Part shown: in pieces, positions 34,590-53,119 of the stretch | Layout of the letters: the number at the start of each line of letters is the position of its first letter | Numbering within the stretch: the stretch's first letter is position 1 | Assembly (NCBI GenBank): GCA_963721455.1 | Contig: CAVRJG010000053.1 | Span: 171,001-235,000 of the forward strand | From: an uncultured Methanosarcinaceae archaeon | GTDB taxonomy: Archaea > Halobacteriota > Methanosarcinia > Methanosarcinales > Methanosarcinaceae | Direction: 5' to 3' | DNA: 64,000 nucleotides | Notes under the pieces: model-generated | The model's database searches: none | What the model was told of the DNA's origin: nothing | Seen by the model: only the letters and a program-made list of their open reading frames with translations | Program-made: the position numbers and the translations under genes

Positions 34590-37418
34590 ATGATGGTTAT
34601 TTCAGAATTAGCTTTAGGCTATCTTACTAACCTGATATATGATTCTTCCAAGAACATCCCTAAAGAAATTTTTGATACTTACTCGAAAGTATATGATAAG
34701 ACAATTGAAGAGTTCTCAAATAAGAATTATAAATTGAATGGAATACAAATTAATACATTTTTTTATCAGAAAAACGTGGAAACGGCAATCAAAAAATATC
34801 TGAAAAACCCGGAAAAGCTTGATTGTGCAAATATTTTAATCCACGAGTTTTTTGAATTGTTCAGTGAGGAAAATTTCTCCCACGAAGATGCAGACTTAAT
34901 CTTAAACACTTTTTTTGAAATTATGGATGCAGAAATCGAGAAATATCCTGAGCTTATAATCTTTTTTGACCATTACTTAGCAAAAAGAACAGATAAAACA
35001 GTTCAAGAGACAAACCAAGGAGTTAAAGAGTTATCTCAAGAATTCCAAGAAATATCCCAAAAAGTTCAGGAAATACACAAAGTCATAAATGGCGGTAGAG
35101 AAAATCAAGATAAAAAAGAGTTAGACATCGACTTCAGAGAATCATTAAAAAAACATCTGAATAAAATAATAGATGAAGATGGAAAAAACGAAATCAGTGA
35201 AGTCTATACAGAACTCTCAGCCAAAGAAGTTTTACCAGTAACTCTCAAATTCCATGATTCGGAAAGCGATAGACCACAAGAATTTGAGGTTCTTGAGCTT
35301 GTTGAAAAAGAAGAGAAGCTGATCATTTTCGGGGAGTCAGGCTCAGGAAAAACAACTACACTTAGATGGTTGAATTACATCTTTGCTAAAAGTTACCTTG
35401 AGGGAAAAAACGAAAATGTTCCCTTGTACATTGAATTAAATTCTTACATAAGTGAAGAGCGGTTCATAAAGAAGCCGTTTGACGCATACGTCACTATGAA
35501 AGCAGAAGGAAAAGGAATCTCAGAGGACACTCTAAAAACGATATTGAAAGGGAAAGCAATTATTCTTCTCGACGGCTTTGACTTACTCTCACCTACCGAT
35601 GAGTTCCATCCCTATGATAAGATTTCAAATTTCATTACTGATTACAACAATTGCAGGTTTGTTATTTCTTCAAGACCAAGCTTTTTTGAGAGCATAAAAA
35701 GCAATTTCAAAGTCTCTGAATTGGAAAAACTAACCGACGAAAAAATAGAGATATTCATAAATCACTATGTTCCAGATGAAGAACTCGCAAATATTCTCAA
35801 AGACAAAATCCTTAGCAATCAACAGTTAAAATCCATACTCTCAAACCCGATGATGCTTTACATCGCCATCAAAGTTGCTATGGGAAGAAAAGACAAGTCC
35901 GATGACTTACTTCCTTCAAACCGTTCTGACTTGTACGAAGCTTTTATTTCTACTCTTTTCAGTCATCAGGACGAAAAAGGAAAACATCTCCACGCAGACA
36001 GAATACAAATTGAGAATGCTCTTACTGATATCTATTTCAATCTTCAATCCAAAAATGAAGTTTCATGCAAATATTCTGAAGCCTTCAAATTTGTCAAAAA
36101 AAGCTCTGAAGATCCTATATTTAAAAAAATTAGCCCACAGTTAATTCTTGAAGACTGCCTCAAACTGGGAATACTGTATAAAAATGATAATTACGTATCA
36201 TATGGAATCCATCAGTCTTTTCAGGAATATTTTGCAGCTATAAAGCTAAAAGAGCTTTTTGAAAGTGGATATGATGTATCAGAGGCTTTTAGTCATCCAA
36301 AGTGGGAAGAAGTCGTGATATTCACCTCTGAAATGCTAGATTCGGATTTTATTGACGAATTTATTGACTCAATGCTTTCAAAAGGCGAGCTTTTCCTGGC
36401 TTCAAAGTGTGTAAATAAAGCAAGTGAAAAAGTAAAGGAAAAATTGTGTTCTTTGCTTGCAGATAAAATGGATTCCCGGTATAAATCAGAAAAGATGAGT
36501 TCTATTGAAAGTCTGGGAAGAATTGGAACCACTGGAATTAGTATAATTGTTAAAGCACTGAAAGATAAAGATTCAGATGTGCGGGGGAGGGCGGCAGAGG
36601 CACTTGAAAATATCAAATCGGATACAGCCGTGCAGCTGCTAATAAACGCACTGAAAGATGAAGATTCAGATGTGCGGGGGAGGGCGGCAGAGGCACTTGG
36701 AAATATCAAATCGGATACAGCCGTGCAGCCGCTAATAAACGCACTGAAAGATGAAGATTCAGATGTGCGGGGGAGTGCGGCACAGGCACTTGGAAATATC
36801 AAATCGGATACAGCCGTGCAGCCGCTAATAAACGCACTGAAAGATGAAGATTCAGATGTGCGGGGGAGTGCGGCAGATGCACTTGGAAATATCAAATCGG
36901 ATACAGCCGTGCAGTCGCTAATAAACGCACTGAAAGATGAAGATTCAGATGTGCAGTGGAGGGCGGCACAGGCACTTGGAAATATCAAATCGGATACAGC
37001 CGTGCAGCCGCTAATAAACGCACTGAAAGATAAAGATTCAGATGTGCGGTGGAGTGCGGCACAGGCACTTGGAAATATCAAATCGGATATAGCCGTGCAG
37101 CCTCTAATAAACGCACTGAAAGATAAAGATTCAGATGTGCGGGGGAGGGTGGCAGATGCACTTGGAAATATCAAATCGGATACAGCCGTGCAGCCGCTAA
37201 TCAATGCACTGAAAGATAAAGATTCAGATGTGCGGAGGAGGGCGGCAGAGGCACTTGGAAATATTTGTACTGTTAAAAATAAAAAGCAGCTGGAAGATCT
37301 ACTGGGATCAGATCATGAATTTTCAGTTAACACGGCATTTGAAATCCTCTATGAAATCGAAAAAGAAGAAAAATCGAAAATTATTTTGTTCAAAGATGAA
37401 AAATTCTCACGAATCTAA
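34590..37418 (+). CDS. NACHT NTPase + HEAT (PBS-lyase-like) repeat protein, NLR-like
   Basis: Walker A GESGSGKTT, Walker B ILLDGFD, ISSRP, NPMML, IHQSFQEYFAA, eight 31-aa HEAT repeats. Confidence 0.92.
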   Translation: MMVISELALGYLTNLIYDSSKNIPKEIFDTYSKVYDKTIEEFSNKNYKLNGIQINTFFYQKNVETAIKKYLKNPEKLDCANILIHEFFELFSEENFSHEDADLILNTFFEIMDAEIEKYPELIIFFDHYLAKRTDKTVQETNQGVKELSQEFQEISQKVQEIHKVINGGRENQDKKELDIDFRESLKKHLNKIIDEDGKNEISEVYTELSAKEVLPVTLKFHDSESDRPQEFEVLELVEKEEKLIIFGESGSGKTTTLRWLNYIFAKSYLEGKNENVPLYIELNSYISEERFIKKPFDAYVTMKAEGKGISEDTLKTILKGKAIILLDGFDLLSPTDEFHPYDKISNFITDYNNCRFVISSRPSFFESIKSNFKVSELEKLTDEKIEIFINHYVPDEELANILKDKILSNQQLKSILSNPMMLYIAIKVAMGRKDKSDDLLPSNRSDLYEAFISTLFSHQDEKGKHLHADRIQIENALTDIYFNLQSKNEVSCKYSEAFKFVKKSSEDPIFKKISPQLILEDCLKLGILYKNDNYVSYGIHQSFQEYFAAIKLKELFESGYDVSEAFSHPKWEEVVIFTSEMLDSDFIDEFIDSMLSKGELFLASKCVNKASEKVKEKLCSLLADKMDSRYKSEKMSSIESLGRIGTTGISIIVKALKDKDSDVRGRAAEALENIKSDTAVQLLINALKDEDSDVRGRAAEALGNIKSDTAVQPLINALKDEDSDVRGSAAQALGNIKSDTAVQPLINALKDEDSDVRGSAADALGNIKSDTAVQSLINALKDEDSDVQWRAAQALGNIKSDTAVQPLINALKDKDSDVRWSAAQALGNIKSDIAVQPLINALKDKDSDVRGRVADALGNIKSDTAVQPLINALKDKDSDVRRRAAEALGNICTVKNKKQLEDLLGSDHEFSVNTAFEILYEIEKEEKSKIILFKDEKFSRI
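36555..37265 (+). repeat. 93-bp tandem repeat, about 7.6 copies
   Basis: gcactgaaagat recurs at 36555, 36648, 36741 ... 37206. Confidence 0.97.
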
Positions 37419-41255: not shown

Positions 41256-41786
41256 TTATTTTAAATAGTCTGCCAGCGCCACTCTTTCAATAACGAGTTC
41301 AGGAATATGTTCTTCGCCTGATGCTTCAATTTCTGCATCAGTAATCCCGAACACGGAAAGGATTCCCCGCCTTTTGGCATCGGAATAAGCAAGCAGCTCA
41401 GTACAGGATTTTTCCTCTATTAATTCTCTGATGGCAGAGAGAGCCAGAACCAGATTGTCCATTTTTCCAAGCAGCACGAATACTACACTGTTTTCCCCTT
41501 CACGCAGCCCTATAGAAAAACTCCTCTCAATCTGCCTTTCACCGGCTGCATAGCGCATGATCTCGATTCCTGGATCTTTTGCTATATTCTTGCCTGCAGC
41601 AACTGCCCGAAGAGCCTTTCCTATTGCAAAATGAAGGTGTCTTTCTCCTGCTATCAGGTCCGCGTTTAAGCCCTGGACAATGACTTCGTTTTCGGAAGCT
41701 ATAGAACTTACTGTTTTTAGAAAGCCGGAAAGATTCGGGATACTTACAGTTCCGCAGATTACCTGGATTTCCCTTTGCATTTCCAT
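41256..41786 (-). CDS. cgi121: KEOPS complex subunit Cgi121
   Basis: NIAKDPGIEIMRYAAGERQI and LVIERVAL motifs. Confidence 0.9.
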   Translation of the reverse strand: MEMQREIQVICGTVSIPNLSGFLKTVSSIASENEVIVQGLNADLIAGERHLHFAIGKALRAVAAGKNIAKDPGIEIMRYAAGERQIERSFSIGLREGENSVVFVLLGKMDNLVLALSAIRELIEEKSCTELLAYSDAKRRGILSVFGITDAEIEASGEEHIPELVIERVALADYLK

Positions 41787-42469
41787 ACTCCTGCCATAAC
41801 GCGGGCTTTACAATAAGGATTTCGGTTGTGGAAAAATTAGTGAGTAAAGACTCATAAAATCTGAGAACCCTTATTCTTTCGAATACACGTCACTCTATTT
41901 AGTGAGATAGTTAATAATTCAATCTATATGTTATAGTATTATCAGGATTAACTTTGCTCTAACCTAACTAATTAGTGCCATTCATTTTTGTACATGGATC
42001 TTGGGTACTCTAAGCTCGAATACCAGGTTCCAAGCAGAATGAGAGGACGACGTATACTTTAGTGTATTGCTATATTAAACAAATATGCGCTTTTTTCTAT
42101 GTCTCTGCGGAATTTGAGAAACATTTATAGAAAAATAATATTATTAAAGATATATTAGCAAAATATTGACTAAATAATTTCGGGTTTTAATTAATATTAG
42201 TTTCTTATTTATATTTCTCTAGTCATTATATTTCTTAGATCATAAAATAATAGTAATACAATTTGAAATCACTTTCATCGGCACCAGTCATCAGCACATA
42301 AAATGAAGATTGAAAAAGTTACCAGTACTTTATACTCTTCCAGAGATGAATCTGGATGGTTAACTGGAAAAAACAAAACTTATTTGATGCATCTGGCGAT
42401 TGGAAGTGAATCAAAAATCAACAGCCTTCAAATTGTATCAAACTAAATAATAATTGGGAGTGTGGACAA

Positions 42470-42784
42470 ATGGGAAAACAAATATATGACAGAACGAAGA
42501 AGATCCTGAGTATTTCTATCCTGGTCTTGCTTGTAATGTCAATGATGGTCGCGGTAGTGAGCGCACAGCGAGATGGCGATCGAGACCGAGATCGAGATCG
42601 AGATGGCGATCGAGATCGAAACTGGCGAGATGGCGATCATGGCGGTCGGAATTGCAGGTGGGTCTGTGACGACTGGGAGAAACAGCGGTTCTGTAGAGAC
42701 TGGGGCCATAAAGGGTGTAGAGACTGGGGCTGGAGATGGGTCTGTAGAGACTGGGAATGGAGATGTTGGGGGCGGAAAATGTAA
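42470..42784 (+). CDS. Small secreted Trp/Arg/Cys-rich protein
   Basis: GGGAG RBS, signal peptide ending VSA, RD repeats, six-Cys Trp-rich C-domain. Confidence 0.75.
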   Translation: MGKQIYDRTKKILSISILVLLVMSMMVAVVSAQRDGDRDRDRDRDGDRDRNWRDGDHGGRNCRWVCDDWEKQRFCRDWGHKGCRDWGWRWVCRDWEWRCWGRKM

Positions 42785-42876
42785 GAACTGTCCATGAATG
42801 AAGGAAGATAAACATAAAGACAGAGGCAGTAAGACATTAATTTTGAAAAATCTAATGTATTAACGTCTTTCATAAT

Positions 42877-42985
42877 GGGACTTACGCCCTTGAGAAGCAA
42901 TATAAGGCACGTGCAGATTTACCACAGGATTTGGTAGACGAGCATGATTCATGCTCTTGTTTCTCAGTCACATTGCGTAAGTCCT
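42877..42985. mobile_element. MITE-like element with GGACTTACGC...GCGTAAGTCC inverted ends
   Basis: 10-bp perfect TIR, 109 bp long. Confidence 0.65.
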
Positions 42986-43082
42986 ATAAATATTTGCATC
43001 TTAAAAACTAAATTAAATATTTGGCAGCAGGCATTTACCCTTTAAATTCTCTATTTTTCTATTAATTAACTGTCTGGTTTAC

Positions 43083-43200
43083 TTATATTCAACGTTTTTT
43101 GCTGTTCCTTTTTGATCGCCTTCTTCAATCACCTTGACAAATGCCTGTCTGACAGATTTTCTTTTCCTGACCAGAAAATTGCCTTGTGGTATTTCCAAAC
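43083..43200 (-). pseudogene. Diverged copy of the vhxC 3' end fused to a copy of the cgi121 upstream region
   Basis: Encodes [19 protein letters not shown] versus vhx[20 protein letters not shown]. 43191-43241 matches 41779-41829 at 49/51. Confidence 0.88.
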
Positions 43201-43306
43201 TCCTGCCATAACACGGGCTTTACAATAAGGATTTCGGTTGTAGGAGAAGAAACAAAAAAGAGGGAAAATAAAAGAAAAGCCGAGAATTTTCAAAAAGGGC
43301 TCTGAA

Positions 43307-43438
43307 TTACCAAACATTTGAGAACCACCTCAACACCGTTAACCCCAGCACTACCATAAAAAGAAGAATCAAGAGGTTGAGGATGATCTGGCCGACTTTT
43401 GTTCGAATTGCCCCCAGTTCATACATCCAGATTCCCAT
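43307..43438 (-). CDS. 43-aa single-TM small protein (not in the ORF track)
   Basis: MGIWMYELGAIRTKVGQIILNLLILLFMVVLGLTVLRWFSNVW*. Confidence 0.5.
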   Translation of the reverse strand: MGIWMYELGAIRTKVGQIILNLLILLFMVVLGLTVLRWFSNVW

Positions 43439-43618
43439 ATATAAATATGAATGAGACGGCATATATCCATTTGGAAATTTTCATACATAATTAAAGATTT
43501 GTTTTTGAAGCTTGAAGGAAAAATTAAATATTCTATTCGTTGTTGGATTCATTTCCCATCAATTTTTATTCATTTTCCATCCATTTGTGATTCATTTCCC
43601 TTTTTGATTTGTTTACTG

Positions 43619-44410
43619 TCACTGCTCTTTTATCACTATTTTCTGGTCGCTTTCATCGACTACCCTGACAAAATGCCTGTCTGAAAGATCCTCTTTTCCT
43701 GACCAGAAAATTGCCTTGTGGTACTTCCAGACATTCGGATCGAGTTCAAGAATTCCTACATGAACCACGAGTTCAAAAACAAACCAGTAGCCTGCAAGCA
43801 GATGTATTAAACGGATTAGCCCTAAAGCATCAATACCAAGCAAAGGCGCAAAGTACCAGGCGACAGAGGTAATCCATTCTGCAATGGGAAGCCCGAAAAG
43901 GGTCCAGTTGATATTGTAAAGCACTATCCCTGTAATCGCGATCAGGAAGATTGCCGTGCTTTCGAAAATAATCAAAAGCTTGAGCATGGGGTGAAGTTTT
44001 GTAACATAATGTCCCTTACGCTCGTCATAAATTGTGAAAGCCGGATACCTGCCTTTTCCGAAAAAATTCTTGACTATATCAATAAGGCGTTCTGCATCAT
44101 CTTTTCCAAAAAGGTAAGATTCCCTGAAATGCCCTATCCGGTCTCTGACACTGCATCTTTCTCCTTTGCAGGAAAAAATATTGTAAGGGACCAGAATCCA
44201 GTTTGCGACCAGGAAAAAGGGCACAGCAATAATATGCAGGGTCCGAGCTGTATGAAATTCCATGAAATCCCAGCCAAAATAGATTTTGAACCCTGTGATA
44301 AGAAGGGTCAACATGGCGACAAGATGCACCAGGTGAGTAACTCTCTCAAGCCAGGTATAACGTTCAACAATTATTCTCCCGGAAGCGGGTTTTTCAGCAG
44401 ATCGTACCAT
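43619..44410 (-). CDS. vhxC: Hydrogenase b-type cytochrome subunit
   Basis: His-containing TM helices; follows small and large subunit genes. Confidence 0.88.
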
Positions 44411-44422
44411 TTCCAGCCTCCT

Positions 44423-46213
44423 TTAAAGCACCCTTATATTATAATCCGGATTCTTTCCGGTTTTGTCAATGGTATGAACCGCACATGCCAGACAGGGATC
44501 ATAAGAGCGGGCTGTGTGCAGGATTCCGAGAGGATTGGAATAATCCACTCCAAGTGCATTTTCGGCAGCTGAAATTTTAGTGCCTATGAGAGCCTGCTCA
44601 ACAGGGCTTGGAATTTCCTGTGAATTCCTGGGAGCAAGGTTCCAGGTACTCGGAACCACAGCCTGATAAAGGGTTACCATTGAATCCGGCCCTGTGGCAA
44701 TCCAGTGACCCAGTGCCCCTCGCGGAGCTTCCCATAAGCCCATTCCTGTGGAACTCTTTGCCATGGAAAGATCGGTATGCACCGCAACCTTTCCGCCTGC
44801 CTGAAGATCCTGTGTGAGCCATTTCATGAGTTCTGGAATCACTACAAGAATTTCCTGCATCCTTGCAATCATGCGGGTGTAGTTATTGACTGGATAGTAG
44901 CCGTTATCCTGAAAAGTTTTTACCAATCCCGTAACAAGGGGCTCTCCCATAATCATCATACGAGCAAGGGGGCCGACCTCACACGGAATCCCAGCATAAT
45001 GAGGGGCTTTTGCCCATGAATAGCGGCTCTCCGATCCTTTCGTATAGTCGATCTTTTCAGGGTCCCCTTCTGGAACCGTAACCCCATTCCAGGGAGGACG
45101 GTCTTTTTCCTCGTCAATGTAGAAGGAGTGACTAACGCTTTCTGAAATCTTCCTGTAGTCGAATTTTTCAAGCCTGAAATACCCGTTCATATAACCGGAA
45201 GGCATAACCCTGCTGTCCGCAGGACTTGTGGGATCATATCCATCCCCTTTCTCAGGCTTGAAGAAAACTCCGTAAGAAAGAAAACCGATCTTATCGGGAT
45301 CTTTGTAAGTCCCTGCACGGTCCATTTTCATACTGATAGGCAGACCAAGAAGTTTTTCTCCTATCAGCTCCGAGCCGAAAGCCGCAAAGAGCGGGACGTC
45401 TCCCCAGCCTGCAGAGTGTGAGAAATCCTTGCTGGTAAGGGATTTATTCAGAAGTTCCTGCAGGTGTCCAATGACGAAATTAACAGCCTTTTGTGGGGAA
45501 GAAGCCCTGTAAGTATTTTCAATCCAGGTATTGGGAGAGACCCCAAGAGTAAATGCTTCAATGAATTCCATCGTCTTCGAGACATAACTTACAATTTGCC
45601 CGATATCGGCAACCGTCGGAGAATAAACTACTCCCCCAACATGCTGAAGAACCGGATGAGGCATCTTGCCAGCTATCAAGGAAATGGCGTCGTGCAAGCG
45701 GCGAAATTCCACTATAGCGCCTAGATAGGACGAGCCAGCCGGATAACTGATACCGTTAAGCTGATAAATCAAAGGTGCAAAACGCCCTTGGAGTTCTTTC
45801 CATACTGCATTTCCAACATCCCCGTATTTTGCCAGGATATCACGGTAAGCCGGGTTTGCAAGATCAGGACCCCAGAGTAAGTAGATATGGGCTGCATGGC
45901 TGGCGATGTAATTCAGGCTCTGGTGAACATTTCGCATTAAAAGACCGTTTTTGGGGACCTCACCTGCAACCCCGAAAAGTTCATCGAGGGCATTTGCTGC
46001 AGCTATGCCGTGGCTAACCGGGCAAACTCCACAGATCCTCTGGGACAGAAGTGCCGCATCCCTGGGATCCTGGTGCTCTAGGAGACGTTCAAAACCCCTT
46101 AACTGCAAGCCACTACTCTGGGCGTCAGTAATTACGCCTTCCCCATCGACTTCGGTATTGATTCTGTAATGTCCTTCAATTCTCGTAAGAGGATCAACAG
46201 TAACCTGTACCAT
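44423..46213 (-). CDS. vhxA: [NiFe] hydrogenase large subunit (second operon)
   Basis: [26 protein letters not shown] motifs. Confidence 0.9.
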
Positions 46214-47442
46214 TATTTTTCACCTCCGGTTTCCTCTGGAGTGCTTTCTTCGGCAAAGCCTTCCTCGTCCTCAGGTCTTTTCATGACAGTTCTCCTGACA
46301 GCATGAGCCCCTGCAGCAAGTAACGCGCCCCCTATTGCCACTCCCGCTATAGTAGTGATATTCGTACCTAAAATTCCTGTTTTTTCAATTTCCACGAAAA
46401 AGGGCCTGGTACTATCTGGGAAGCCCGGCTGAACGCAGCCAATACAGGGAGAGCCTGCCTGAGGGCAGTAATTGAGATGGCCGTTCCAGTTGCGAGTAGC
46501 ACAGTCTGCATGGGTATAAGGCCCCTTACATCCCAGTTTCCAGAGGCACTTAGGTCCACCTACTGTCAGCTCAAATTCTCCACGGTCATAGTATCCGCGA
46601 CGAGAACAGTTATCATGAATAACATGGTCAGGCGGGAAGAAAACCTTTGGACGTTTCCAGTGATCCAGCATATAAGGCAAATCATCAGGTACCTTTATTT
46701 TTCCCAAAACAACTGCGCCTATTGTCAAAAAAACCCAGTCTGGATGAGTAGGGCAACCAGTAAGATTAATTACAGGCTTTTCGATGCCAAGGAGATTTAA
46801 AATCCCCTTTGAGGAATCTTCCATAGTAAAGGCAACCCCACGGGGGTCCATAAGTTCAACTATATCACTCTTAGCAGAGTTCACTCCACCATTAGTCGCA
46901 CAATTCCCAATTGCAACAATTGCCGAGGCATTTTTCGCAGCTTTCGCGTAAATCTCTTTATAGGTCTTGCCTCCCAACATGAGATATTTCCCGGAACCTT
47001 GAGGTCCGTTCGCAACTGCTCCTTCGGAAACTAGAACGTAACCATTTTCCCTTTCCAAGATCTCATCCAGCAGAATCTCGGAGTTAAGCTCACTAGTATT
47101 TGCAAGCTTTCCATCTACGAAAATTCCTTGCTGCATCATTAAAACTTCATGATAGAGAAGTTTGAGATTATACTCCTGAAGGAATTCGATGATATCAGGA
47201 GATCCTCCGTCCAGCATTGATATGGTACAGCCACTATCCATTACTCCGTGAAGCCATACTACTTTAGTTTCCGAAAATTCAAGGGCTTTTGCCAGATCGC
47301 TTTTATATGTTTGTAAAAACAGTGAAGCTCCCAGTACCCCAACAGCCTTTATAAAAGTCCGTCGATCCATCTTCATAAAATCGAGATTTTTAAACTTTTC
47401 AAGTAAGCCGTCATCAATCGTCCCAGTTCCCCCTGATCGCAA
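46213..47442 (-). CDS. vhxG: [NiFe] hydrogenase small subunit, Tat signal (start uncertain)
   Basis: DRRTFIK Tat motif, [17 protein letters not shown]-terminal TM anchor. Confidence 0.9.
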
Positions 47443-47724: not shown

Positions 47725-48696
47725 TTGAGGAAAGAAAACTATGCAGCAAAATATGGGGTACAAAGTATGACTATTGGGGACGATCACGATTTAGAATCGC
47801 CGAGATTTGCAGGCGATGAGGTTTTGGAGGCTTGCTATGACAATGAAAGATTCCTTCGCAGAGGCGATAGTGGATCTGCAGTAGAGAAAGTTCAACAGGC
47901 TCTGATGGATGCGGGATTTCCTTTGCCAAGAGGTGGAGCTGATAGCTTTTTCGGGGAAGAAACTGAGTCAGCTGTCAAAAACTACCAGCGAGCACGCGGA
48001 CTGAGTGCTGATGGTGTAATAGGGCCGATTACTATAGGGAATCTGGACGCAGAATTCTCCACAGGAGTAACAGAGCCTTCAGTTCCACCATCACCGGAAC
48101 CACAAGTATCGAAGGTTCCAACTCCACTAAACCCGGAATCTCCGGTTCGACCAGCACGGGCATCTCCTGTTGAGCCACAAAGGGCACCACCGGTTCCAGA
48201 AGTACATGCACCGCCGGTTCCAAAAGTACACGCACCTCCAGTTCCAGAAGTACACGCACCTCCAGTTCCAATTCCACCGGTATCGGAACCTCCAATTTTA
48301 GCAACACAGACAGTTCCGCCTGAACAAACACCGGTTCATGTAACTAAGCCCATAACTCCACCTGTGACTACACCACCCAAGTCGATTGATAGTCAAGGGC
48401 GCAAATTTCATTCCGCTGGGACATGGAGAGGGAATAGCTCCTTCGAAGTCCAGGCTGGAAAATCAATACGTTTTGAAATAAGTAATCCTAATGTCAGTGA
48501 ATCAAGCATCCGGATAAAGACAAATACAAGGGAAGTCAGAGAATCTGTACTTCTGCCTGAATATATTGTCGATTTTGAATTCTCTATAAGAGGTGAAGGG
48601 CCTTTTACCTGGAAATTTGATATTGAAACAGGCAGCGAGGAATCTTTGTTTAATTGGAAACTTTATAGCAACTGGGTGCCGGGAAAATCCGAGTAA
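47725..48696 (+). CDS. Peptidoglycan-binding domain protein with Pro-rich linker
   Basis: LRRGDSGSAVEKVQQAL...FGEETESAVKNYQRARGLSADGVIGPIT (PG_binding_1-like), PPVPEVHA repeats, C-terminal beta-rich domain. Confidence 0.85.
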   Translation: MRKENYAAKYGVQSMTIGDDHDLESPRFAGDEVLEACYDNERFLRRGDSGSAVEKVQQALMDAGFPLPRGGADSFFGEETESAVKNYQRARGLSADGVIGPITIGNLDAEFSTGVTEPSVPPSPEPQVSKVPTPLNPESPVRPARASPVEPQRAPPVPEVHAPPVPKVHAPPVPEVHAPPVPIPPVSEPPILATQTVPPEQTPVHVTKPITPPVTTPPKSIDSQGRKFHSAGTWRGNSSFEVQAGKSIRFEISNPNVSESSIRIKTNTREVRESVLLPEYIVDFEFSIRGEGPFTWKFDIETGSEESLFNWKLYSNWVPGKSE

Positions 48697-48799: not shown

Positions 48800-49285
48800 T
48801 TAAATTGGGGAAGAGATTTCTTCCCTTATGAGTTTTATAGCTTTTTCCACACCCTCTAGGACTTCAGGACTTATTTCCTGCGTAGCTTCAGTGACTATTG
48901 TTCCTATTTCGATTCCAATTACCACAATTTCCGGGAGGGTTTGGATCTCTTCTCCAATCCTTAATACATCTGTAATTGTGAGATCGTGAGCAGAGACAAG
49001 GTTTAGGGGTTCAGCAAATTTTATCAGGTCCTTACCTTCTATGCGGTGCACGGAACCTGGCGGGCTGTCTGCCAGAACTGCATCTACTATAATGACCTTC
49101 CTGGCGCCATCAAGAAGATTTAAAAGATCAAGCCCGCAGACCCCTGCGTCCTCGATATCAAGATCTTTGAGGTCTTTAAGTTCGGTTTTGTGAAGAGCCT
49201 CAAGGACTTTGAGGCCAACACCATCGTTTCCCATTAACGGGCTTCCGCATCCCAGGATACGGACAGGAGCATGTAATATAGACAT
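48800..49285 (-). CDS. vhtD: Hydrogenase maturation protease
   Basis: GCGSPLMGNDGVG, IIVDAV, SAHD motifs. Confidence 0.92.
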   Translation of the reverse strand: MSILHAPVRILGCGSPLMGNDGVGLKVLEALHKTELKDLKDLDIEDAGVCGLDLLNLLDGARKVIIVDAVLADSPPGSVHRIEGKDLIKFAEPLNLVSAHDLTITDVLRIGEEIQTLPEIVVIGIEIGTIVTEATQEISPEVLEGVEKAIKLIREEISSPI

Positions 49286-49379
49286 ATTCTCACCTAATTA
49301 AAAAGCGTATAGATTTTTTGAACATGCCTATACTACCTTTTCCAGTTAAGATTTTTCTTTAATAATTTTTTAGTAGTTT

Positions 49380-50156
49380 TTAGTGCTTGCCTTTCTTACT
49401 ATCAAACCTTGAATATTTCTCTACAAACTCTGAATAGTGAGTGTCTGAGAGGTCTTCCTTTCCAGTCACGAAGATAGCTTTGTAGTACTTCCAGACATGA
49501 GGGTCAAACTCCAGAATACCGACATGTACTACCAGTTCAAAGATAAACCAGTAGGTCATCAGCAGGTGAAGAACCCTGAAGAACTGCAGGGAAGTCATGT
49601 CGAATACAGGTGCAATAAGGGCTCCTGCAGACAGGATCCACGAGCCTATAGGAAGACCGAAAAGCGACCAGTCAAGCTTGTAAAGGACAATGCCTGAAAT
49701 CGCAATAAGGACGAGGGCTAAACCTTCAAGCGGAATCAGGATCTTCATTAAGGGGTGAAGTTTAGTCTCGTAGTGACCTTTTTCTTCATCATAGATAGTA
49801 AACGCCGGGTATTTTTTGCCTTTGCTGAAGAAATTACCAATTATACCGCCCAGACGCGCTGCATCTTTAGGACCAAAAATATAATGGTTTATGAAGTGGG
49901 TTATTTTTCCCGTAAACCCGTGACCTTCGGAGAAGATGTTGTAAGGGATAAGGATCCAGTTCACTGCAAGCAGGAACGGAACCGCTATCATGTGGAGAGC
50001 GCGGGCGTTATGGAAACTCATAAAGTCCCATCCCGCGTATATCTTTAACCCTGTGATGATGAGCACCAGCATCGCTATGGCATGGACGGTATGAGCTATC
50101 CTGTCAGTAACGGTATAGCGCTCAACAACCATTGTAGGGTTGTCCTTAGCTTTCAT
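49380..50156 (-). CDS. vhtC: Methanophenazine hydrogenase cytochrome b subunit
   Basis: Paralogue of vhxC; operon context. Confidence 0.9.
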
Positions 50157-50181
50157 TATAGGTCATCTCCTTGTACTATAC

Positions 50182-51957
50182 TTATACTATTCTTAGAGTA
50201 TTTGGAGCGTTTTTCCCGGTCAGGTCAATGGTGTGGACTGCACAGGAAATGCAAGGATCATAGGACCTACCCATATGGAAGATGCCAAATGGATTGGTAT
50301 AATCGACAGCTCCGACTGTGTTAATTTTTGAACCAATGAGAGACTGTTCGAGCGGACCAGGGATGCCATTGCTGTCTCTTGGGGACATTAACCAGGTACC
50401 CGGAACTATGGCCTGATAGTTGGCAACCTTTCCGTTGCTATCAGTGGAGATCCAGTGACCAAGGGCTCCACGAGGTGCTTCCCACAGGCCCATACCCTGG
50501 GAGTTCTTAGCCTTTTCAAAGTTCAGAGGCACGGAAATCTTGCCGCCTGGCTGATAGTCAACTGTTACCCAGTTAAGAAGTTCATATGCGAGAATTGCCA
50601 TTTCCTGCATACGAGCCAACATTCTGGTGTAGACATTAGCTGCAGAGTAGCCTTTCGCATTGAAGGCCTGAGCTAGGCCGGTTACGAGCGGCTCTTTTAT
50701 ATTTAGCATGCGTGCAAGAGGCCCGACTTCACCTGGAATTCCCTCGTATCTCGGAGCCTTGTCCCAGCTGTACTGGCTATCCGAACCTCCTGTGAAGACA
50801 ATTTTATTTGGATCCGTAAACGGAACGGTTTCACCTTTTGTTGGTGCGAAGTCGTTGGCACTGTTCTGGTAGAAGGAGTGAGCAGTACTCTCCGTAACCT
50901 TGTCCGGATTAAATTCCTGATATTCGAGTTTTCCTGATACCACACCTGAGGTGAAAATACGGTCTCCTGCTGGACTCCTCGGGTCGTATCCGTCTTTGGG
51001 CTTGTAGTATCCACCATATGAAATGAAGCAGATCTTTGAGGGGTCCTTGTACCCACCGATTGTATCATGTTTAAGGCTTGCTGGAAGGCCAAGCAGAGTT
51101 TCGCCTACAAGTTCTGAACCAAAAGCTGCATAGAATTCCACATCTCCCCAACCTGCGTCTTTGGAGAAGTCATTGGAAGCAAGGGATTTGTCAACAAGTC
51201 CCTGGAGGTGTCCCTTCACAAAGCTTACCGCTTTGTCTGGAGAGCTTGCCTTATAAGTATTTTCGATCCAGGTATCGAATGGAACTTTCAGAGTATGTTT
51301 GGATACGAAGTCCATGACCTGCAGATAGTAAGTGGAAAGTTTGGTTATATCTGCGACATTAGCCGGGTAGGTATATCCACCTGGATAAAGGGTTGAAACG
51401 CCAGGCATTCTACCGCCAATAAGTGCAATAGCCTCCTGAAGGCGTTTCTTTTCAGGAATTGCTGCAAGATAGGAACTTCCCACAGGTACAGGCACGCCAT
51501 CCATCTTGTAGCTGATTGGGGCAAACCTTCCAACCATCTCTTTCCAGACTGCGTTTCCGGCGTCTCCCAGTGTTGTAAGGACATTTCTATACGCTGGGTT
51601 TGCAAGGTCAGGGCCAAAGAGGATATATATATGAGTTGCATGGCTTGCAACCATGTTCAGGCCCTGGACAATGTTCCTCATTACAAGAGCATCTTTGGGA
51701 ACTTGATCAGCCACGCCATAAAGATCGTCAAGAGCATTTGTGGCTGTCATTCCATGAGCAATAGGGCAGACACCACAAATTCTCTGGGTAAGAAAAGCTG
51801 CGTCTCTTGGATCCTGGTTCTGCAGAATGCGTTCAAAACCCCTGAACATAAGGGAAGATGACTGGGCATCGGTAATAACACCGTTAGCATCTACTTCAGT
51901 GGATATGCGTTGGTGGCCTTCAATTCTCGTTAAGGGATCAACTGTAACGTTTACCAT
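50182..51957 (-). CDS. vhtA: Methanophenazine hydrogenase large subunit
   Basis: RICGVC and DPCISCAVH motifs. Confidence 0.93.
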
Positions 51958-51964
51958 TTTTCAC

Positions 51965-53119
51965 TCACTCTCCTTTCATTCTCCTTACAGCATGTACGCC
52001 TGCTGCAACTGCAGCTGCTCCGACTGCAACTTTGGCTACTGTGTCAATGTTTGTTCCGGCAATTCCGACATCTTCACGTTCAACATACAGGGGTCTTGAC
52101 GTATCTGGGAAGCCCGGCTCGACACAGGCAATACAGGGGCCGCCTGCCTGAGGACACAGGCTGACTGAGCCGTTCCACCTGCGGATTCCACAGTCTGCAT
52201 GGGCGTAAGGACCTTTGCATCCAAGTTTATAAAGGCACGCTGGCCCGCCAACCTCAGTATCGAGCTCTCCGCGGTCATAGTATCCGCGGCGGGGACAGTT
52301 TTCGTGCACCGTATGGTCTGGAGGGAAGAAGACTTTTGGCCTGCCGTAATCGTCCAGAACAGCCGGAAGATCGTCAGGGACTTTTATCTTTCCAAGAATT
52401 ACCGCGCCCACGGTAAGAAGTATCCAATCAGGATGAGCAGGACAACCCGGAATGTTGATTACGGGCTTATCGATGCCAAGTTCTTTAAGCATGCCTCCTT
52501 TTTTATCCTTTGTAAAGCCTACTCCCATGTAATCCGTGTCCTTGGCAACATCGCTGGCTGCATTGGTAATTCCTCCCCAGGTGGCACAGGCCCCGACTGC
52601 AACGATAGCTACGGCATTCTTTGCAGCCTCTGCAAGGGTTTCCTTGAAAGTCTTGTTTCCAATAACCAGGTAGCGTCCGGAACCATCCGGACCGTTCGGA
52701 ATTGCGCCTTCAATGACCAGGATATACTTACCTTCTTTGTAAAGTTCTTCAAGGAGGATCTCGGAGTTAAGCTCGGAGGTGTTTACAAGCTTACCATCAT
52801 TCCAGATTCCCTGCTGTGCACAAATAGTCTCATGGAAAGCAAGATTGACATTGAGCTTTTGTAGTGCCTGTACAATGTCAGGATTGCCTGCATTTAAGAC
52901 CGATTCGGAGCAGCCAGTGCATTCAGAGCCGTGCAGCCAGATAATCTTGGTCTCTGCAAATTCAATACCCCTTACCAGGTCAGCTTTGTAGGTATTCAAG
53001 AATGTAACTGCACCAAGTGCACCTACAGCTTTCATGAAGGTGCGTCGATCCATTTTTAAAAAGTCCACACTCTCCAGTGTACGGACAAGGTTTGTCATTC
53101 CAGTACTCATCTCTACCAC
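51965..53119 (-). CDS. vhtG: Methanophenazine hydrogenase small subunit
   Basis: DRRTFMK Tat motif, ECTGCSES, GCPAHP. Confidence 0.93.
   Translation of the reverse strand: MVEMSTGMTNLVRTLESVDFLKMDRRTFMKAVGALGAVTFLNTYKADLVRGIEFAETKIIWLHGSECTGCSESVLNAGNPDIVQALQKLNVNLAFHETICAQQGIWNDGKLVNTSELNSEILLEELYKEGKYILVIEGAIPNGPDGSGRYLVIGNKTFKETLAEAAKNAVAIVAVGACATWGGITNAASDVAKDTDYMGVGFTKDKKGGMLKELGIDKPVINIPGCPAHPDWILLTVGAVILGKIKVPDDLPAVLDDYGRPKVFFPPDHTVHENCPRRGYYDRGELDTEVGGPACLYKLGCKGPYAHADCGIRRWNGSVSLCPQAGGPCIACVEPGFPDTSRPLYVEREDVGIAGTNIDTVAKVAVGAAAVAAGVHAVRRMKGE

Follow-up and report, generated by a model that had tools for sequence, protein, structure and literature searches.

The stretch of DNA analysed here (the window) comprises 64,000 nucleotides (nt) from an uncultured Methanosarcinaceae archaeon (GenBank assembly GCA_963721455.1, contig CAVRJG010000053.1, forward-strand positions 171,001 to 235,000), and our subject is a small plus-strand gene at 42470..42784 encoding a 104-amino-acid (aa) product, hereafter the query. 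The gene is flanked on one side by FBPase (glpX), a glutamine amidotransferase and Cgi121, and on the other by a cytochrome b and the large and small subunits of a NiFe hydrogenase; it is divergent from cgi121 and convergent with the cytochrome b gene. An earlier reading of the letters, the original prediction, had described an open reading frame (ORF) with a signal peptide, a spacer, six Cys, nine Trp and a repeated C-x-D-W motif, all of which we confirmed on re-reading the sequence.

The amino terminus of the query has the features of Sec-export leaders in this genus, namely MGKQ..FDR.KK, a hydrophobic core and a small-x-small triplet with predicted cleavage. That triplet, V-S-A, precedes Gln33, the Sec-type assignment being read from sequence features and not from a predictor; with the signal peptide removed, the exported product would be approximately 72 residues long. 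The 43-aa C-terminal part (C-domain, residues 62–104) carries the six Cys, at spacings of 4, 9, 8, 9 and 7, and the nine Trp, with four C-x-D-W motifs starting at residues 66, 75, 83 and 92. The spacing of nine between the second and third and between the fourth and fifth Cys had been counted correctly in the original prediction, and the GHKG that it had placed at a turn is where AlphaFold2 places one. Trp makes up 21% of the C-domain versus 1.0% in the long open frames of the same genome, and at least six Trp with at least four Cys per 43 residues occur in 12 of 39,317 stop-to-stop segments genome-wide, a set that includes the query ORF and three or four of its leader-bearing paralogues. The linker is encoded by imperfect tandem repeats (family D3, 42569–42646), and the C-domain is also repeat-built, from DNA units of 24–27 nt at 42692–42765 (families D4 and D6).

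Table 1. Coordinates of the query gene, its upstream region and the neighbouring scar (window positions)
Feature	Position	Strand	Remarks
Promoter region	42162..42240	+	Two TATA-like boxes, 42208–42218 and 42226–42236, invariant in 7 orthologous loci
5′ leader, about 230 nt; candidate cis-regulatory RNA, apparently non-coding	42241..42469	+	Conserved; purine-rich end before the ATG
Signal peptide, residues 1–32	42470..42565	+	MGKQ..FDR.KK n-region, hydrophobic core, V-S-A; cleavage site inferred
Arg/Asp/Gly linker, residues 33–61	42566..42652	+	Length and sequence vary
Predicted 38-residue beta-hairpin, C62 to C99	42653..42766	+	AlphaFold2; strands 62–79 and 82–99, turn H80-K81; C-x-D-W motifs
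Basic C-terminal tail W-G-R-K-M and stop codon	42767..42784	+	Aromatic-G-R-[RK] kept in the 7 closest of 15 aligned relatives
3′ untranslated stretch under RNA contigs	42785..42980	+	Contigs X1–X3
Scar	43109..43248		Degraded cytochrome b 3′ end and copied cgi121 start, overlapping by 10 nt at their joint

The 5′ leader upstream of the gene (Table 1) matches that of five orthologous loci at 224/228, 212/224, 205/225, 179/223 and 165/221 positions (98%, 95%, 91%, 80% and 75%), and in the distant loci it is more conserved than the coding region; the leader of G154 carries a 150-nt deletion. A 47-codon upstream ORF (42303–42446) was considered as a gene and rejected, its relatives being frameshifted by indels or devoid of a start codon. 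The leader contains an invariant 12-base-pair (bp) long-range inverted repeat, approximately 42261–42272 with 42436–42447, and RNAalifold proposes 51 pairs, among them a 12-bp long-range helix, of which just two covary. Given too little variation, this predicted RNA structure is unproven. A search of 41700–43700 against Rfam returned only a nematode small nucleolar RNA model, whose 19.8 bits fall short of the gathering score of 40.

Promoter, leader and signal peptide recur elsewhere in the genome. The promoter–leader module of approximately 280 nt has 14 nhmmer matches there, 12 of them directly ahead of ORFs that bear the leader peptide; nine are full-length and belong to the query gene, four genes on contig 21 and four on contig 39. 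The latter eight form two tandem arrays of four genes each, at about 41.3, 43.9, 46.8 and 49.1 kilobases (kb) on contig 21 and about 141.6–146.1 kb on contig 39 (loci L060 and L061). Similarity between the head of the query and those of its paralogues spans approximately 42162–42503. At the protein level, 22 ORFs of the window's genome carry the leader peptide (E < 0.001), the profile of which scores the query ORF at 3.7e-19, and their tails are unrelated to one another and of low complexity: rich in Gly/Trp, Gly/His, Lys/Trp/Glu/Asn, Tyr/Gly/Lys/Asp, Cys/Gly/Asn or Asp/Arg/Val. The query is thus one of about a dozen paralogues that share promoter, leader and signal peptide and differ in hypervariable tails, and the multigene family looks co-regulated.

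Because leader peptides of this type are also carried by ordinary exported proteins with globular domains (cupredoxin, PKD or cupin) in the genus, part of the likeness reflects no more than a genus-typical signal peptide. Relatives sharing the leader are named by their sources as hypothetical proteins of Methanosarcina species. A word search with the leader only returned 3 of 5.8 billion proteins, and an alignment-based search returned more. At the orthologous site in G122 (C107, 333–1271; L015), there are two tandem leader-bearing genes: the first combines a complete 5′ module with a shortened tail, the second a partial 5′ module with a divergent, Trp-poor tail bearing eight Cys.

The gene occupies the same position in related genomes. 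In 7/7 related loci (G153, G114, G165, G143, G154, G149 and G122) the orthologue adjoins the hydrogenase cytochrome b gene; Cgi121 lies on its far side in five of these, falling outside the retrieved stretch in G154 and beyond the contig end in G122. We also compared five congeners without the peptide. In two of them, G148 and G112, cytochrome b lies 720–820 bp from cgi121 with no leader-bearing ORF between, versus a spacer of 1,833 bp in the window; in the other three the available flank stops short of cytochrome b. The promoter–leader module is present at all seven orthologous loci and at 0/5 of the peptide-free ones.

Downstream of the gene, the spacer contains a scar (Table 1). Its positions 43139–43200 match 43671–43732 with 92% identity, the cytochrome b relic reaching out to 43109 (85–92% over 43109–43200), and positions 43191–43248 match 41779–41836, which hold the cgi121 start and the flank upstream of it, with 91% identity. 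The relic is also present in G153 and G165, and the relics stand in the order expected at a tandem-duplication joint. Relative to some congeners, then, the gene is an old insertion between cgi121 and cytochrome b at one conserved site. The original prediction had placed it on an acquired cassette, which does not hold in the sense of a recent island: the site is the same in all seven loci, no integrase, transposase or other mobility domain was found among the 10 neighbouring proteins scanned, and the G+C content over the gene (0.45–0.48) is ordinary. We rejected a mobile-element origin on the latter two grounds.

The distribution of the gene is patchy. The peptide-free G148 has a closer Cgi121 (86%) than two carriers, G114 and G165 (82%); judging from these identities, the peptide gene must have been lost or laterally replaced. 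In related genomes the peptide itself has diverged much further than its neighbour, with tblastn identities of 38–71% versus 76–92% for full-length Cgi121. A hydrophobic membrane ORF on the minus strand, downstream of the cytochrome b gene (43307–43462; 51 codons, 43 from an inner ATG), had been put forward as a possible partner of the peptide. It has matches in 38/59 genomes of the genus, some with in-frame stops, versus 8/59 for the peptide, and an 87% DNA copy at contig 53:55085–55270; on this genome distribution we rejected it as a dedicated partner. The ORF goes with the hydrogenase region and may encode a small membrane protein that has escaped annotation and is tied to the hydrogenase operon.

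The peptide family is small. A profile of the C-domain matches 8/59 genomes of the genus, this one included, with no second copy found in the window's own genome, and five proteins among 1.84 billion cluster representatives (E ≤ 0.001), all of which share the leader. The full protein matches 51/177 genomes of the family Methanosarcinaceae, nearly all through the leader alone; full-length relatives were found in the genus search and in metagenome protein sets. The family is tiny and, by the source names of its relatives, restricted to part of a single genus of methanogens, Methanosarcina. The closest database relative, P0002 (98 aa, 73% identity, on a 1,800-nt contig), bears the source label of an alphaproteobacterial metagenome bin, and its contig looks mis-binned, given the leader and the distribution of the family. 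Another metagenome protein, P0005 (581-nt contig), shifts to the +2 frame after the first Cys motif, either by a true frameshift or by a mistake in sequencing. In the orthologue of G165 (locus L011) one strand motif is lost and the Cys number five, the only odd count among 16 members.

Searches of family and structure databases gave little. No Pfam family matches the query at E ≤ 0.01; at E ≤ 1 its sole contact is with Conotoxin (16.4 bits, below the cut-off of 25.1), over a span running from the signal to the Cys region, and one of 15 family members touches PF25052 AtDEF-like (E 0.0081). Against NCBIfam, the query and nine relatives have only sub-threshold compositional matches (WGxxGxxG, FliH, HxsA4). 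No Protein Data Bank (PDB) chain matches the C-domain profile at E ≤ 10, and the ESM Atlas holds no usable match to residues 58–104. Foldseek against PDB gave a best E of 6.6, its top matches being long hairpins of cystine-knot hormones, which is uninformative for the hairpin; with VIA-align, no Z above 4.0 was obtained over 48,161 chains, and the matches shown all align the signal-peptide helix (residues 1–47) and leave the hairpin untouched. The assignment to the defensins consequently falls away at the level of families, with neither a Pfam match at curated threshold nor a PDB profile match. It also falls at the level of fold, defensins having a three-stranded sheet with three or four fixed disulfides and the AlphaFold2 model of the mature part two strands only. 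In the literature, at the level of listings and abstracts, we found no description of the peptide family or of the shared 5′ module.

The gene appears to be expressed. Parts of the stretch occur in 17 RNA-recorded runs by index search, and contigs from four metatranscriptome runs of four studies (a bioreactor, sediment twice, and soil) cover 42295–42980. These contigs were placed on 41800–43600 (1.8 kb) with 90–99% likeness and give no strand, ends or level. Two independent contigs begin at 42295 and 42309, and the cover ends at 42823 in run X1, at 42980 in X2 and at 42875 in X3. Elsewhere there are short pieces at 41831–41899, 43191–43242 and 43276–43334, the gaps between which are not readable as silent flanks. 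DNA carry-over in RNA sets being possible, the cover is good but not final evidence that the gene is transcribed. The original prediction had named absent expression, and likewise absent Cys/Trp conservation, as grounds for giving it up, and on both points it has held: the RNA contigs cover the gene, and the Cys pattern and Trp positions are preserved in homologues down to about 40% identity.

Among relatives the frame is preserved across codon-sized indels, and Nei–Gojobori ratios of non-synonymous to synonymous substitution rates (dN/dS) are 0.1–0.37 for the signal peptide, with notably low dS, and 0.15–0.64, below 1, for the C-domain in 14 of 15 pairs. The exception is the closest pair, with 10.5 non-synonymous versus 1.5 synonymous differences in the C-domain, too few for a test. 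These values bear on the notion that the peptide is an evolutionary by-product, a fast-drifting repeat tail behind a duplicated promoter–signal module that is tolerated without a specific function. Such an origin would suit the low-complexity, repeat-derived sequence with its open alternative frames, the frame change in P0005, the lost motif and odd Cys count of one orthologue, and the patchy distribution. The mostly low dN/dS, however, together with a confident structure prediction, transcription in several habitats and a Cys/Trp framework long kept at one locus in eight species-level genomes, speaks against it, and we give it only a slim chance.

We ran AlphaFold2 on the query with a 15-sequence alignment. 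The model has a signal-peptide helix, disorder at residues 27–58 (predicted local distance difference test, pLDDT, below 50) and then a hairpin of two 18-residue strands with block pLDDT of 81–87. A model of P0006, a homologue with eight Cys, has strands at 71–89 and 92–110 with a central pLDDT of 94, flanked by terminal strands at 59–63 and 118–122. The C-domain is thus predicted to be one long two-stranded beta-hairpin that turns at GHKG. A complex prediction with two copies of the C-domain scored 0.00, which speaks neither for nor against self-association.

The strand limits of both models place residues i and j opposite each other where i + j comes to the same total as the positions of the first and last Cys (161 in the query, 181 in P0006). 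In this register the two outermost Cys form the only Cys–Cys pair, and the inner ones each lie across from the Trp of a C-x-x-W on the opposite strand; the pairs in the query include C75–W86, R76–D85, D77–R84 and W78–C83, with W64 opposite W97. Across eight close members, the predicted register yields one Cys–Cys, two to five Cys–Trp and zero to four salt-bridge pairs, versus two or three Cys–Cys and no Cys–Trp pairs in the register three residues away. The second and fifth Cys share a register with the third and fourth, and the first and sixth are three residues off in every close relative; a regular hairpin could therefore pair at most two of three disulfides. No register pairing all Cys exists among the eight close members, although an irregular end might still permit three bonds.

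Of the nested-disulfide hairpin originally proposed, then, the long hairpin turning at GHKG stands in the AlphaFold2 models of two proteins, and the three-rung cystine ladder is doubtful. The supply of disulfides points the same way. DsbA, VKOR and Thioredoxin_4 have no match in the genome (98.5% complete), whereas control genomes do match, and methanogens live strictly anaerobically; because of both, a design that depends on three disulfides is weakened, although spontaneous oxidation is still possible. The number of Cys is even in 15 of 16 members (4, 6, 8 or 10, and five in the remaining one), which may simply reflect one motif per strand.

If the Cys stay reduced, they might bind or buffer Ni, Co, Fe or Zn or scavenge oxidants at the cell surface, in company with His- and Cys-rich paralogues. 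The absence of recognised extracytoplasmic disulfide machinery would suit such a thiol or metal peptide, as would the extreme His/Asp-rich and Cys/Gly-rich tails among the same-leader relatives, the His that stands in place of Arg or Asp beside Trp and Cys in some orthologues, and the adjoining NiFe hydrogenase operon. Yet the query C-domain has one His, a single C-x3-C and no C-x-x-C knuckles, and in the predicted hairpin the four inner Cys alternate between faces, far apart and each against a Trp, leaving no chelating cluster in the monomer. The adjacency to the hydrogenase, moreover, reflects insertion into a spacer between converging genes, and congeners keep the same operon without the peptide. 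We regard this function as quite unlikely.

The pairing of Cys with Trp raises a further alternative, in which the Cys, Asp and Trp of the C-x-D-W motif are substrates of covalent cross-links (thioethers to Asp or Trp) that make a rigid signal or effector. Thioether precedents are the ranthipeptides and the small subunit of quinohemoprotein amine dehydrogenase. The strict repetition of the three residues within one motif would fit, as would the opposition of Cys and Trp in the predicted register, and an even number of Cys would then need no disulfides. However, no radical-SAM/SPASM or other maturase is encoded beside the gene or beside the two paralogue arrays (14 proteins scanned), and a Sec signal peptide speaks against leader-guided modification in the cytoplasm. 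The sole nearby radical-SAM gene encodes a UPF0004/radical-SAM/TRAM domain set, which we take to be of the MiaB/RimO type, and its synteny was seen only at peptide-bearing loci. Cross-linking of this kind is very improbable.

The charge and face structure of the hairpin bear on the function that the original prediction had preferred, an archaeal antimicrobial peptide. Here the cationic Trp/Arg hairpin would disrupt the membranes or walls of competitors, perhaps after removal of an Arg/Asp pro-piece, and the gene family with its conserved head and hypervariable tails would form a diversifying arsenal. In all 15 members examined the C-domain has a net positive charge (+2 to +10) and the linker ahead of it is neutral to acidic (−7 to +1), and the predicted Trp/Arg-rich beta-hairpin carries a signal for export. 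The fast evolution relative to neighbours, including the excess of non-synonymous differences in the closest pair, the narrow and patchy distribution, and the transcripts in mixed communities of bioreactor, sediments and soil would all be in keeping with a weapon, and the constancy of promoter, leader and signal ahead of variable tails parallels the precursors of defence peptides and conotoxins.

Several properties run counter to that function. The query C-domain has a net charge of just +4, with seven Asp or Glu in its 43 residues, and no amphipathic face: the two faces of the hairpin are alike, with six versus five hydrophobic residues and net charges of 0 and +1. The similar faces and the acidic residues together argue against a membrane-lytic design in the modelled peptide. 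The hairpin, with its 38 residues, has roughly double the length of known antimicrobial hairpins, stabilisation by disulfides is doubtful in this anaerobe, and the small membrane ORF is not specific to the peptide. No processing site was seen in the protein, and no immunity-like partner, dedicated peptidase-ABC exporter or maturase at the locus or beside the paralogue arrays (14 flanking proteins scanned). Database searches returned no defensin or bacteriocin family at threshold. Many paralogous tails, such as those rich in Lys/Glu/Trp or Tyr/Gly/Asp/Lys, look non-antimicrobial and resemble structural low-complexity proteins. An antimicrobial role is a serious candidate but, on this balance, a doubtful one.

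We tentatively favour a surface- or matrix-binding peptide over an antimicrobial one. The exported protein would consist of a floppy Arg/Asp linker and a hairpin of Trp, Arg, Asp and Cys, zipped in antiparallel fashion by self-complementary C-[RK]-D-W motifs that set Cys opposite Trp and Arg opposite Asp, with one possible clasp between the first and last Cys. Because Trp and salt bridges would be exposed on both faces, such a hairpin should stick to something, whether itself, glycans or polyanions. Outside the cell, the mildly cationic, non-amphipathic hairpin might adhere to a polyanionic or glycan surface, Arg pairing with carboxylates and Trp stacking on sugars; the likeliest targets would be the cell's own envelope or matrix polymer, or neighbouring cells. 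The genus is known to make an acidic, chondroitin-like wall polymer. The peptide would then act with its co-regulated low-complexity paralogues as a component of surface or matrix and not as a pore-forming defensin. Variation in repeat number, giving 4, 6, 8 or 10 Cys, and in linker length is typical of surface and matrix proteins.

A number of points weigh against this surface-binding proposal or the structure beneath it. The five query models average pLDDT values of 62, 62, 48, 48 and 44, so that only two of the five are confident, and the register was deduced from secondary-structure strings and strand limits and not from coordinates. Because distant members with ten Cys, which have extra loop Cys and terminal Cys–Cys, fit neither simple register, the fold of the family may be more complex. 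An even number of Cys would also be expected from disulfides. The glycan or matrix target, resting on composition and analogies, is the least certain part of the proposal, and the protein, having no C-terminal sorting signal or membrane-helix anchor, might diffuse away. Cationic Trp/Arg-rich peptides are, furthermore, classic membrane-active antimicrobials, and a conserved signal with a hypervariable mature part is a hallmark of defence-peptide and toxin gene families.

These last features can be combined into a bolder alternative. In it, Methanosarcina would possess a defence-peptide-like superfamily with a conserved head (promoter, structured leader and signal) and diversifying tails, and the query would be an antimicrobial or cell–cell effector that needs little or no disulfide and works in a reducing habitat. 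We think this unlikely. If it held, methanogens would gain their first gene-encoded antimicrobial of the Cys/Trp hairpin kind, and a single switch, the shared leader RNA, would serve an entire secreted arsenal. What probability the readings set out here leave over belongs to one not yet thought of.

Almost nothing is known of small secreted peptides of methanogens, or of competition and cohesion among these organisms in digesters, sediments and soils. The query is a secreted, Cys-rich cationic hairpin peptide from an unexpected host, and its self-complementary motif and gene-family architecture are apparently undescribed. As an expressed and easily synthesised candidate (47–72 residues), it offers a way into the question of whether methanogens make antimicrobial or matrix-binding peptides. 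Self-pairing of C-R-D-W across a hairpin would be a new minimal stabiliser of long beta-hairpins, maybe free of disulfides, and of interest to peptide design. Through the shared promoter–leader module, the co-regulation of a whole set of exported low-complexity proteins becomes approachable in an archaeal genus of importance.

Elsewhere in the window, a 323-aa protein encoded at 47725–48696 (+) has a PG_binding_1 domain at residues 49–104, in an archaeon without peptidoglycan. It is kept beside the hydrogenase operon in six related loci, and its other 220 residues have no counterpart in Pfam or among solved structures. A recent report (PMC12352652) describes bacteria-killing peptidoglycan hydrolases of archaea. 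A 942-aa protein encoded at 34590–37418 (+) combines a NACHT/STAND NTPase domain with many HEAT repeats following it. On the minus strand, 48800–53119 holds ORFs of 384, 591, 258 and 161 aa, identified by size alone; the first three resemble in size, respectively, the small and large hydrogenase subunits and the cytochrome b encoded at 43619–47442.

Among known peptides, the closest in outline are the beta-hairpin antimicrobials protegrin, tachyplesin/polyphemusin, arenicin and theta-defensin. Like the query, they come as precursors with a signal peptide and a spacer, and they are net-cationic, two-stranded antiparallel hairpins rich in Arg and aromatic residues with Cys facing across the strands. 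Here, however, the predicted hairpin has 38 residues versus about 17–21, the charge of +4 comes with seven Asp or Glu and no amphipathic segregation, the Cys stand 7–9 apart and not all in register, there is no sequence or profile relation, and the producer is an archaeal strict anaerobe without recognisable disulfide-forming enzymes. Measured against protegrin, tachyplesin and arenicin, then, the predicted two-stranded hairpin agrees, whereas the one-register cystine ladder, strong charge, amphipathicity and size do not. The likeness to protegrin and tachyplesin drawn in the original prediction thus goes little beyond outline, given a hairpin twice as long, the acidic residues and the lack of a hydrophobic and a polar face.

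Indolicidin, tritrpticin and lactoferricin share with the query a very high content of Trp and Arg, with cation–pi pairs likely. They are 11–25 residues long, have neither Asp nor Cys frameworks and are unfolded or boat-like on membranes, whereas most Arg of the query have an Asp partner in salt bridges predicted between the strands. Ranthipeptides/SCIFF, sactipeptides and thiazole/oxazole peptides are accompanied by an adjacent maturase and a dedicated exporter, neither of which is found at the locus or the paralogue arrays.

For the proposed binding of polyanions or glycans, the analogy drawn is with the Cys–Trp–Arg layers of thrombospondin type-1 repeats, which bind glycosaminoglycans, and with WSXWS motifs and designed tryptophan zippers: elongated beta structures with stacked Trp and Arg and terminal Cys. 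Thrombospondin repeats are eukaryotic, with three strands and six Cys in a fixed pattern; their likeness to the query is one of analogy only. No thrombospondin-type fold appeared in the Foldseek or VIA-align lists, searches that were uninformative for the hairpin.

At the level of gene families, conotoxins, amphibian skin peptides and the variable surface lipoproteins of Mycoplasma combine a conserved signal with a hypervariable mature part, as here, and the Mycoplasma lipoproteins conserve the 5′ untranslated region too. The query family has no homology to conotoxin-type superfamilies, and its tails are mostly low-complexity repeats and not compact toxins; the query itself has neither phase-variation repeats nor a lipobox. 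Within its own genus, by contrast with these distant parallels, the query carries the defining mark of the paralogue family, a full module directly upstream of a leader-bearing ORF.

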